A DNA stretch of 64,000 nucleotides from Escherichia coli (GCF_003334255.1 NZ_QOWU01000004.1), one strand, 5' to 3'; shown: positions 36,843 to 40,928, numbered from the stretch's first letter. The notes: generated from the sequence alone by a model not told the origin. Program-made: numbers and translations.

Positions 36843-36856
36843 TTGAGCCACATCAA
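36843..36856 (+). promoter_or_regulatory. FNR-type binding site upstream of feoA
   Basis: TTGAG-CCAC-ATCAA matches the FNR consensus TTGAT-N4-ATCAA with one mismatch; feoABC is known to be FNR-activated. Confidence 0.55.
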
Positions 36857-36910
36857 CATTGAGTCAGATTATTATTCAAACCAACATTCGCACACATTTT
36901 AAGTATTGCT

Positions 36911-36937
36911 GATAGAAACCATTCTCATTATCATTGT
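36911..36937 (+). promoter_or_regulatory. Fur-box-like element upstream of feoA
   Basis: gatagaaaccattctcattatcattg contains a TCATTATCATT core resembling the Fur consensus GATAATGATAATCATTATC. Confidence 0.5.
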
Positions 36938-37045
36938 GTTGTTGATTATTTAATCTCTCCTTTGTTGGCAAATCATCTGGTCTCATGTCGCTGTCAAACG
37001 CCCCATGAGGTAGTTATCCAGTTAATGAGAAACAAGTAGGCACCT

Positions 37046-37273
37046 ATGCAATACACTCCAGATACTGCGTGGAAAATCACTGGCTTTTCCCGTGAAATCA
37101 GCCCGGCATATCGCCAAAAACTGCTTTCTCTTGGCATGTTACCTGGCTCCTCTTTTAATGTGGTGCGCGTCGCTCCACTCGGCGACCCCATTCATATCGA
37201 AACCCGTCGTGTGAGCCTGGTATTACGCAAAAAAGATCTGGCCTTATTAGAAGTGGAAGCGGTTTCCTGTTAA
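37046..37273 (+). CDS. feoA: Ferrous iron transport protein A
   Basis: 75-aa ORF ([37 protein letters not shown]...). Confidence 0.95.
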
Positions 37274-37289
37274 TACGGTGATAACAACA

Positions 37290-39611
37290 ATGAAAAAATT
37301 AACCATTGGCTTAATTGGTAATCCAAATTCTGGCAAGACAACGTTATTTAACCAGCTCACTGGCTCACGTCAGCGTGTAGGTAACTGGGCTGGCGTTACC
37401 GTCGAACGTAAAGAAGGGCAATTCTCCACCACCGATCATCAGGTCACGCTGGTGGACCTGCCCGGCACCTATTCTCTGACCACCATCTCATCGCAGACCT
37501 CGCTCGATGAGCAAATCGCCTGTCACTACATTTTGAGTGGCGACGCCGACCTGCTGATTAACGTGGTGGATGCGTCTAACCTTGAGCGTAACCTGTACCT
37601 GACGCTACAACTGCTGGAACTCGGCATTCCCTGCATTGTGGCACTGAACATGCTCGACATTGCCGAGAAGCAAAATATTCGTATTGAAATTGATGCTCTG
37701 TCGGCGCGTCTGGGCTGTCCGGTGATCCCGCTGGTTTCAACCCGTGGTCGCGGTATTGAAGCGCTCAAGCTGGCGATTGATCGCTATAAAGCTAACGAGA
37801 ATGTGGAACTGGTGCATTACGCACAGCCGCTGCTCAACGAAGCAGATTCACTGGCAAAAGTGATGCCTTCCGACATCCCGCTGAAACAACGTCGCTGGCT
37901 GGGCCTGCAAATGCTGGAAGGCGATATCTACAGCCGCGCCTACGCCGGTGAAGCGTCGCAGCATCTGGATGCCGCCCTCGCCCGTCTGCGTAATGAGATG
38001 GACGATCCGGCGCTGCACATTGCCGATGCGCGTTACCAGTGCATTGCTGCCATCTGTGATGTGGTAAGCAACACCCTGACGGCAGAACCCAGCCGTTTCA
38101 CCACTGCGGTAGATAAAATCGTGCTCAACCGTTTCCTCGGTCTGCCGATTTTCCTCTTTGTGATGTACCTGATGTTCCTGCTGGCTATCAACATCGGCGG
38201 GGCGTTACAGCCGCTGTTTGACGTCGGCTCCGTGGCGCTATTTGTGCATGGTATTCAATGGATTGGCTACACGCTCCACTTCCCGGACTGGCTGACTATC
38301 TTCCTCGCCCAGGGCCTGGGTGGCGGCATTAACACCGTGCTGCCACTGGTGCCGCAGATTGGCATGATGTACCTGTTCCTCTCCTTCCTTGAGGACTCCG
38401 GGTATATGGCGCGTGCGGCGTTTGTGATGGACCGTCTGATGCAGGCGCTGGGCTTGCCGGGGAAATCCTTTGTGCCGCTGATCGTCGGTTTCGGTTGTAA
38501 CGTACCGTCGGTAATGGGTGCACGTACGCTTGATGCACCGCGTGAACGTCTGATGACCATCATGATGGCACCGTTTATGTCCTGCGGCGCGCGTCTGGCT
38601 ATCTTCGCAGTATTCGCGGCTGCCTTCTTCGGGCAGAACGGTGCGCTGGCGGTCTTCTCGCTGTATATGCTGGGTATTGTGATGGCGGTGCTGACTGGCC
38701 TGATGCTCAAGTACACCATCATGCGCGGTGAAGCGACGCCGTTTGTCATGGAGTTGCCGGTCTATCATGTACCACACGTTAAAAGCCTGATTATCCAGAC
38801 CTGGCAGCGTCTGAAAGGCTTCGTTCTGCGTGCTGGTAAAGTGATCATCATCGTCAGCATTTTCCTGAGCGCTTTCAACAGCTTCTCGCTGAGCGGGAAA
38901 ATCGTCGATAACATCAACGACTCGGCGCTGGCGTCCGTCAGCCGGGTGATCACCCCGGTCTTCAAGCCAATTGGCGTGCATGAAGATAACTGGCAGGCAA
39001 CGGTTGGCCTGTTTACAGGTGCCATGGCGAAAGAAGTGGTAGTGGGTACGCTCAACACCCTCTACACCGCAGAAAATATTCAGGACGAAGAGTTCAATCC
39101 GGCAGAATTTAACCTCGGTGAAGAGCTGTTCAGTGCGATAGATGAAACCTGGCAGAGCCTGAAAGACACCTTCAGCCTTAGCGTACTGATGAACCCCATT
39201 GAAGCCAGCAAAGGCGACGGCGAAATGGGTACCGGGGCGATGGGCGTGATGGATCAGAAATTCGGTAGCGCAGCAGCAGCTTACAGCTACCTGATTTTCG
39301 TCCTGCTGTATGTACCATGTATCTCGGTGATGGGGGCTATCGCCCGTGAATCAAGCCGTGGCTGGATGGGCTTCTCCATCCTGTGGGGGCTGAATATCGC
39401 TTACTCACTGGCAACATTGTTCTATCAGGTCGCCAGCTACAGTCAGCATCCAACTTACAGCCTGGTGTGCATTCTGGCGGTTATCCTGTTTAACATCGTG
39501 GTTATCGGTCTGCTGCGCCGCGCGCGTAGCCGGGTGGATATCGAACTGCTGGCAACCCGCAAGTCGGTAAGCAGTTGCTGCGCAGCCAGCACCACCGGTG
39601 ATTGCCATTAA
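37290..39611 (+). CDS. feoB: Ferrous iron transporter B (N-terminal GTPase plus membrane permease)
   Basis: ORF track starts at GTG 37278; ATG at 37290 gives 773 aa; G1 P-loop (GNPNSGKTT) at the N-terminus and a polytopic membrane domain. Confidence 0.95.
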
Positions 39612-39847
39612 TGGCTTCACTTATTCAGGTGCGCGATTTGCTGGCGTTACGGGGCCGTATGGAAGCGGCCCAGATAAGCCAGACATTGAACACTCCACAG
39701 CCAATGATTAACGCCATGCTGCAACAACTGGAAAGTATGGGCAAAGCCGTGCGGATTCAGGAAGAACCTGACGGCTGCCTCTCTGGCAGTTGTAAAAGCT
39801 GCCCGGAAGGAAAAGCCTGTCTGCGCGAGTGGTGGGCGCTGCGTTAA
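39611..39847 (+). CDS. feoC: Ferrous iron transport protein C (winged-helix, Cys-rich)
   Basis: ATG at 39611 overlaps the feoB TAA by 1 nt (TAATG); 78 aa; four-cysteine motif [15 protein letters not shown] visible. Confidence 0.9.
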
Positions 39848-39870
39848 CCTTACTCCATCGCCTGTTTTGG

Positions 39871-39905
39871 AAAGCCCGGTATGCGTCTGCATCCGGGCTT
39901 TTTTG
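39871..39905 (+). terminator. Rho-independent terminator of feoABC
   Basis: aaagcccggtatgc-gtct-gcatccgggcttt followed by tttt. Confidence 0.85.
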
Positions 39906-40049
39906 CGTGCGGCTTTCCATAAAAATGCAACTCTTGCAGCACGGCGTAAGTTCCTTTGAAAGCATCTCGCAGGGATGAAAACTCGCTAATACACAGGTGT
40001 GGAGTGGCGCGTAGAGTCGCGGCATTCAAACAACAGGTGAAGGAACGCC

Positions 40050-40928
40050 ATGAGCAAAAAGCAGAGTTCCACCCCACACGATGCGCTGTTCAAACTCTTT
40101 TTACGCCAACCGGACACGGCTCGTGATTTTCTTGCGTTTCATTTACCGGCACCCATTCACGCGCTTTGTGATATGAAAACCCTCAAGCTGGAGTCGAGCA
40201 GCTTTATTGATGACGATCTGCGTGAAAGCTATTCCGATGTGCTGTGGTCGGTGAAAACGGAACAAGGACCAGGATACATCTATTGTCTGATTGAACATCA
40301 AAGCACCTCAAACAAACTGATCGCATTTCGCATGATGCGTTACGCTATTGCCGCAATGCAAAATCACCTTGATGCTGGATACAAAACGTTGCCGATGGTG
40401 GTGCCATTGTTGTTTTACCACGGTATTGAAAGCCCCTATCCCTATTCGCTGTGTTGGCTGGATTGTTTCGCCGATCCCAAACTGGCAAGGCAGCTTTATG
40501 CCTCCGCATTTCCGCTGATTGATGTCACCGTCATGCCTGATGATGAAATCATGCAGCACCGACGTATGGCGCTGCTGGAGTTAATTCAAAAACATATTCG
40601 TCAACGCGACCTGATGGGGCTGGTAGAGCAAATGGCCTGCTTATTAAGTAGTGGATACGCTAATGACAGACAAATCAAAGGGCTGTTTAATTACATACTG
40701 CAAACTGGCGACGCTGTACGTTTTAACGATTTTATCGACGGCGTTGCCGAACGTTCACCGAAACACAAGGAGAGTTTAATGACTATTGCGGAAAGATTGC
40801 GGCAGGAGGGGGAACAATCCAAAGCCCTGCATATAGCCAAAATAATGCTTGAATCCGGAGTTCCTCTTGCAGACATCATGCGCTTTACCGGGCTGTCAGA
40901 AGAAGAGTTGGCTGCGGCGAGTCAGTAA
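40050..40928 (+). CDS. rpnA: Recombination-promoting nuclease RpnA (YhgA-like, transposase_31 / PD-(D/E)XK family)
   Basis: 292-aa ORF ([28 protein letters not shown]...); the N-terminal region typical of the Rpn/YhgA family is recognisable. Confidence 0.88.

Follow-up and report, generated by a model that had tools for sequence, protein, structure and literature searches.

The feoC gene of Escherichia coli K-12, its four-cysteine winged-helix product, and the two forms of the feoB-feoC junction

Analysis of a 64,000-nucleotide stretch of E. coli DNA (GCF_003334255.1, NZ_QOWU01000004.1; the window) placed the three genes of the feo operon in succession on the plus strand: feoA, the first gene (37046-37273; NCBIfam NF007106, 161 bits); feoB, encoding the Fe(2+) transporter permease/GTPase that is the partner of FeoC (37290-39611; NF007105, 1642 bits); and feoC, also called yhgG (39611-39847; 78 codons plus the stop). 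FeoA and FeoB score above their own NCBIfam equivalog cutoffs and are annotated as such in RefSeq, and the feoC assignment agrees among translation, RefSeq, a solved structure, Pfam, and NCBIfam. Directly 3' of feoC lies a strong predicted intrinsic terminator of feoABC, a GC-rich hairpin followed by a U run (39869-39905, plus strand); its fold energy of -28.9 kcal/mol (z = -3.9) was equaled by 0 of 200 shuffled sequences, and its core was also recovered by a terminator scan. The gene adjoining feoC is annotated as rpnA, encoding a recombination-promoting nuclease (40050-40928). The stretch from 36900 to 40100 has 100% DNA identity to E. coli K-12 MG1655, and this region, annotated with feoA, feoB, feoC, and rpnA, was found in 5,425 of 5,426 complete E. 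coli genomes.

According to PMC7762939, FNR and ArcA activate the feo operon and Fur represses it. An FNR-like site upstream of feoA, TTGAGCCACATCAA (36843-36856, plus strand), has one mismatch to TTGATNNNNATCAA, and this candidate site fits the reported FNR/ArcA/Fur control. The 456-bp tex-feoA intergenic region that holds it also contains an AT-rich stretch resembling a Fur box, GATAGAAACCATTCTCATTATCATT (about 36912-36936), recognized by eye only; a consensus search for Fur boxes across the 64-kb window, allowing up to three mismatches, returned no match. An Rfam scan of the window (1-64000) found no family at the gathering score.

The product of feoC matches PDB entry 1XN7 ("hypothetical protein YhgG," determined by NMR) in 78 of 78 residues, and the RefSeq protein for K-12 FeoC is WP_000157586.1; protein, DNA, annotation, and position after feoB are identical to those of K-12, with no difference detected. 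The 1XN7 structure has been described as a helix-turn-helix with a winged beta-sheet (bioRxiv 10.1101/2022.02.26.482101; PMC7762939). Membership in the FeoC family is further supported by the Pfam FeoC profile (PF09012, E = 5.3e-13, residues 3-68), by the NCBIfam FeoC equivalog NF011960 (176.3 bits against a curated cutoff of 111, full length, 1-78 of 78), by the small (~8 kDa) winged-helix fold, and by the feoA-feoB-feoC gene order, which is kept in 80 species loci. The protein also matches the Klebsiella pneumoniae FeoC entries 2K02, 4AWX, and 7WQU (E ~ 1e-33 over the full length), which share the winged-helix fold, the cysteine motif discussed below, and [4Fe-4S] binding. The first-pass annotation, which named the gene feoC and its product a winged-helix protein, was therefore correct, and the finding is an ordinary one: this is the feoC gene of E. 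coli K-12, well studied, annotated, and with its structure solved.

Translation of 39611-39847 also bears out the four-cysteine stretch quoted in that annotation. The motif, C56-LSGS-C61-KS-C64-PEGKA-C70, occupies the wing (39776-39820, plus strand), with cysteine codons at 39776-39778 (C56), 39791-39793 (C61), 39800-39802 (C64), and 39818-39820 (C70), and according to the literature it ligates a [4Fe-4S] cluster. Its spacing, C56-x4-C61-x2-C64-x5-C70, fits the archetype CxxGxCKxCPx4-7C of the cluster-binding subclass, which was defined in PMC8749426 for the Enterobacterales-type FeoC with four cysteines. Salmonella enterica FeoC, about 88 to 90% identical to that of E. coli, has the same motif and spacing, whereas Klebsiella FeoC has one extra residue before the fourth cysteine (x6 instead of x5). 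The four cysteines were found in 111 of 120 close relatives, with the exact x4/x2/x5 spacing in 107. In a cleaned set of 21 homologs that share 33 to 71% identity with the query, every sequence has C61, C64, and C70, conservation of C56 reaches at least 90%, and the mean column identity is 44%; the motif is therefore more than a product of chance. A rougher set of 40 near-full-length representatives, which includes visibly frameshifted sequences, retains C61 in 39, C64 in 38, C70 in 33, and C56 in 27. The family itself is small, since only 74 clusters at E <= 0.001 emerged when 1.84 billion representatives were searched exhaustively.

Two side observations arose from these searches. A few E. 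coli and Salmonella FeoC cluster representatives lack one cysteine (P0007, P0014, P0023, and P0051); P0007 carries C64G and represents a 167-member cluster named FeoC by NCBI, while P0051 carries C56Y. Such variants could reflect natural loss of the cluster or sequencing errors. In addition, two very long proteins, P0166 (2,574 amino acids) and P0187 (2,510 amino acids), contain 4 and 8 separate FeoC-matching stretches, with E values of 3e-7 and 6e-4, respectively; they would represent giant proteins with reiterated winged-helix modules of the FeoC type.

The first-pass proposal that the cysteines hold an Fe-S or other metal cluster, to be examined by Cys-to-Ser mutants, has already been answered in print. 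In the FeoC proteins of E. coli and Klebsiella, the wing cysteines bind an O2-sensitive [4Fe-4S] cluster, as stated in bioRxiv 10.1101/2022.02.26.482101 with reference to Smith 2019 and Hsueh 2013; the Klebsiella cluster (Hsueh 2013) is also cited in PMC10710835, and the E. coli cluster (Smith 2019) in PMC8749426. The cluster decays fast in O2, and the protein becomes more compact on binding it (bioRxiv 10.1101/2022.02.26.482101). E. coli FeoC C61S/C64S, assayed for iron uptake in a heterologous system, gave the same phenotype as deletion of feoC, a deletion that impairs Feo only in part in this assay (PMC8749426). Structure, [4Fe-4S] binding by the four cysteines, and the need for C61 and C64 have thus been demonstrated for this very protein. 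The complex with the N-terminal FeoB domain (Klebsiella) and the FtsH/Lon circuit (Salmonella) have been demonstrated in relatives only and would apply to E. coli by analogy.

The NCBIfam and RefSeq product name presents FeoC as an [Fe-S]-dependent transcriptional repressor, which would use its winged helix to bind DNA and, depending on iron or O2, regulate feo or other genes. The fold agrees with such a role, as do the matches of FeoC to the Pfam TrmB-type winged helix-turn-helix (E = 7e-6) and to HTH_24, and the function was first proposed from likeness to LysR- and DtxR-type regulators (bioRxiv 10.1101/2022.02.26.482101; PMC7762939). [quoted passage not shown] We regard a repressor function as highly improbable. 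To our knowledge, no DNA binding by FeoC is on record; FNR, a regulator to which FeoC has been likened, is a CRP-family DNA-binding dimer. The analogy, taken from bioRxiv 10.1101/2022.02.26.482101, lies in four cysteines that hold an O2-labile cluster altering conformation and activity; the difference is that FeoC appears to exert its effect by way of protein-protein interaction and proteolysis, and that FeoC has no sequence relationship to FNR.

Evidence that FeoC acts on FeoB itself comes from relatives. The Klebsiella crystal structure 4AWX contains FeoC in complex with the N-terminal GTPase domain of FeoB (bioRxiv 10.1101/2022.02.26.482101). In Salmonella, FtsH degrades FeoB, whose level falls when FeoC is missing but not when FtsH has been depleted as well, and FeoC is itself a substrate of Lon in high O2 (PMC10710835, PMC12288459); a Cys-to-Ala FeoC is more stable in high O2 (PMC12288459), which implies that the cluster serves as a degradation signal and not as a stabilizer. 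The suggestion in the first-pass annotation that FeoC senses redox state or iron on behalf of FeoB stability is thus upheld by published work on Salmonella, while for E. coli we did not find it reported in the searchable literature, where no FtsH or Lon data on E. coli FeoB or FeoC were found. The four-cysteine Fe-S hypothesis, the cysteine mutants, and the link to FeoB stability are all already known from the literature.

The identity of the gene as feoC, the third of feoABC, is effectively beyond dispute, and we consider it probable that its 78-residue winged-helix product with an O2-labile [4Fe-4S] cluster exerts O2-gated control over FeoB and is synthesized from the same mRNA as feoB. C56, C61, C64, and C70 in the long wing jointly ligate the redox-active, O2-labile cluster. 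In the mechanism that we hold most likely, holo-FeoC would be compact at low O2 and bind FeoB at its cytoplasmic N-terminal GTPase domain, where it would support transporter function and, as in Salmonella, shield FeoB from FtsH. When O2 rises, the cluster would decay, Lon would remove FeoC, and FeoB activity or abundance would drop, limiting Fe(II) uptake.

How far such sensing extends across the family is a separate matter. According to the literature, V. cholerae FeoC resembles that of E. coli in Pfam family, operon position, helix-turn-helix core, and interaction with the N-terminal FeoB domain but differs in being free of cysteines and of a cluster and in having a short wing; a phmmer search with E. 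coli FeoC as the query did not reach the V. cholerae protein. Vibrio FeoC is nevertheless essential (bioRxiv 10.1101/2022.02.26.482101; PMC8749426), so cluster sensing is not a universal function of FeoC. Stabilization of FeoB is likewise not the whole role of FeoC, since in V. cholerae restoring the level of FeoB without FeoC did not restore transport, and suppressors acted without raising FeoB (PMC8749426). These results could also be read to mean that the main role of FeoC is that of a constitutive structural subunit within Feo, coupling NTP hydrolysis to pore opening, with the cluster as a lineage-specific modulator or an aid to folding of the wing. The 1:1:1 ratio of FeoA, FeoB, and FeoC and the FeoA point mutations that bypass the need for FeoC without raising FeoB (PMC8749426) accord with such a subunit, as does the proposal that the short Vibrio wing mimics the compact, cluster-bound form (bioRxiv 10.1101/2022.02.26.482101). 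Against it stand the E. coli SxxS mutant, which behaves like the deletion (PMC8749426), and the strong conservation of the four cysteines outside Vibrio; we think a mainly structural role rather unlikely, while noting that it is compatible with O2-gated control of FeoB and does not exclude it.

The remaining question is how synthesis of FeoC is related to that of FeoB. The first-pass annotation described an overlap of the feoC ATG with the feoB stop codon and translational coupling of the two genes, and it placed the start of feoC at 39602. The overlap was confirmed, in agreement with RefSeq: in the junction sequence ...GATTGCCATTAATGGCTTCA..., the TAA of feoB (39609-39611) and the ATG of feoC (39611-39613) share one nucleotide within TAATG (39609-39613, plus strand). 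The start coordinate has to be corrected. The TTG at 39602, the first in the maximal open reading frame, is in frame with the annotated ATG at 39611 and precedes it by 9 nt; it was rejected as the true start because it directly abuts the Shine-Dalgarno (SD) sequence, because RefSeq and the solved protein (MAS) begin at the ATG, and because M1 is invariant in the alignment of 21 diverse FeoC homologs. The overlap by itself is unremarkable, since at least six other adjacent same-strand open reading frame pairs in the window overlap by 1, 4, or 8 nt.

The SD-like element lies within feoB. In the sequence from 39597 to 39619, ...GGTGATTGCCATTAATGGCTTCA..., the hexamer GGTGAT (39597-39602, plus strand) occupies the Gly-Asp codons of feoB and ends 8 nt before the feoC ATG; its best duplex with the 3' end of 16S rRNA has an energy of -9.9 kcal/mol, and it probably functions as the SD of feoC. 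These Gly-Asp codons belong to the last 11 residues of FeoB (39579-39608 in the window), a Cys-rich tail. The Cys-rich C-terminal tail of FeoB has been studied as an Fe(II), Mn(II), and Zn(II) site (PMC10647171), so the codons that carry the feoC SD would be under two constraints together.

To place this arrangement in the family, 80 loci of distinct species were surveyed with a search pattern from a seven-sequence alignment. The feoB stop was assignable in 77 of these loci (3 unassigned), and because the pattern required the Cys motif, the set is biased toward Cys-containing Enterobacterales and is uninformative on Vibrio-type FeoC. An 8- to 12-nt spacer separates the two genes in 61 of the 77 loci, Escherichia albertii and Escherichia whittamii among them, with a TAAGGAG-like SD overlapping the feoB stop. 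In Salmonella the two genes lie 12 nt apart, with TAAGGG in the spacer, compared with the 1-nt overlap of K-12, and the junction of K. pneumoniae, unlike K-12, has no overlap but a 9-nt spacer, the SD TAAGGAGG, and a GTG start; in Yersinia, 17 to 69 nt lie between feoB and feoC. The 1-nt overlap is confined to 7 of the 77 loci, five of them from Serratia and one each from Superficieibacter and an Escherichia sp., and is not a family trait. The Serratia junctions read TGATG (loci L072, L074, L075, L077, and L079) and the Superficieibacter junction TAATG (L066), with SD-like GGGAG or GGGTGA inside feoB. Judging from these comparisons, the overlaps in Serratia and Superficieibacter arose independently.

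Within E. coli, the junction takes more than one form. A 45-nt probe for the K-12 junction matched 4,595 of the 5,426 complete genomes (~85%), a probe for the spacer form of the ST131 type matched 814 (ST131, APEC O18, and others; ~15%), and a probe for an E. albertii-like spacer matched 48 E. coli genomes; the three counts total 5,457, 31 above 5,426, an excess at odds with the mutual exclusivity expected of these probes under megablast seeding. In an alignment (A3), the K-12 junction equals the spacer form minus 11 nt (CACTA[AGGATACAGCA]ATGG to CATTAATGG). This deletion is linked to the changes GGC>GGT, CAC>CAT, TCG>TCA, and CTC>CTT (loci L082-L085 and L002-L004; window 39597-39622), and GGTGAT is present in 3 of 3 overlap alleles, while the corresponding sequence is GGCGAT in 5 of 5 Escherichia spacer alleles. 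In the latter, TAAGGA serves as a weak SD, with an anti-SD pairing of -5.7 to -5.8 kcal/mol, and the spacer of the ST131 type is 10 nt long. The idea that the 11-nt deletion left feoC without an SD was rejected, since the overlap allele pairs at -9.9 kcal/mol, compared with -5.7 to -5.8 kcal/mol for the Escherichia spacer alleles. In E. coli the overlap is a derived and polymorphic allele whose SD was relocated into feoB by the change from GGC to GGT, the 10-nt spacer being the ancestral form.

The surrounding DNA differs between the lineages as well. K-12 and ST131 strain 4433 (L086) are 91 to 92% identical over 39484-39922, a tract that takes in ~130 nt at the 3' end of feoB, feoC, and the spacer beyond it, compared with 97 to 100% across most of feoA and feoB; the two FeoC proteins differ only by Q38K and R72H. 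Strain AB_24_S34 (L084) has the overlap junction together with an ST131-like feoC body (97.9%), a combination that suggests a recombination mosaic. Downstream, rpnA is intact in K-12, and the annotations of ST131 strain 4433 and AB_24_S34 list it as a pseudogene truncated at the N terminus (loci L083, L084, and L086); about 340 bp are missing at rpnA in the ST131 alignment.

Whether the K-12 arrangement couples translation of feoC to that of feoB can be judged from its geometry, which makes coupling plausible; no coupling experiment on feoB-feoC was found in the searchable literature. The junction has the stop/start overlap of coupled pairs, but the arrangement is not conserved among orthologous loci. 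A hairpin that could mediate coupling by burying the SD and start codon (GGUGA/UCACU plus GCCA/UGGC, 39597-39621) was considered and rejected as a selected structure. The region is no more stable than shuffled sequences (z = -0.04). Only one pair joins two positions that are both synonymous and free to vary; it shows no covariation, being complementary in 50 of 83 loci, compared with 50.6 expected; the other pairs are accounted for by conservation of the G-D-C-H and M-A-S-L codons. The failure of this hairpin favors the alternative that feoC is translated independently, by initiation at the GGUGAU SD, with the 1-nt overlap as a neutral by-product of the 11-nt deletion. Independent initiation would also draw on the good anti-SD match and usable spacing of the overlap allele and on the normal SD found in the 8- to 12-nt spacer of most relatives. 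On the other hand, stop and start share a base, so that terminating ribosomes arrive directly on the start codon, and termination-reinitiation at such bacterial junctions is documented (PMC6728339); furthermore, the SD sits within translated feoB, so feoB ribosome traffic must affect access to it. Fully uncoupled translation seems to us possible but somewhat doubtful. Under co-synthesis of the two proteins, feoC would be translated from the feoB mRNA, either by reinitiation at UAAUG or by initiation at the GGUGAU SD within feoB, and either route on the shared mRNA would tie FeoC synthesis to FeoB synthesis. We infer that E. coli uses the same O2-gated control of FeoB as its relatives, with the addition of co-synthesis through the overlap and the embedded SD.

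No mention of the dimorphism of the E. coli feoB-feoC junction was found in the searchable literature, and it is the sole point in this analysis that goes beyond the textbook. We speculate, as a long shot, that the two junction forms might yield differing ratios of FeoC to FeoB synthesis and that lineages might thereby vary in the tightness of O2 control on ferrous iron uptake. If so, a transporter relevant to virulence would carry a natural cis-regulatory polymorphism; the dimorphism in any case provides natural variants that bear on feoB-feoC coupling and on FeoC:FeoB stoichiometry.
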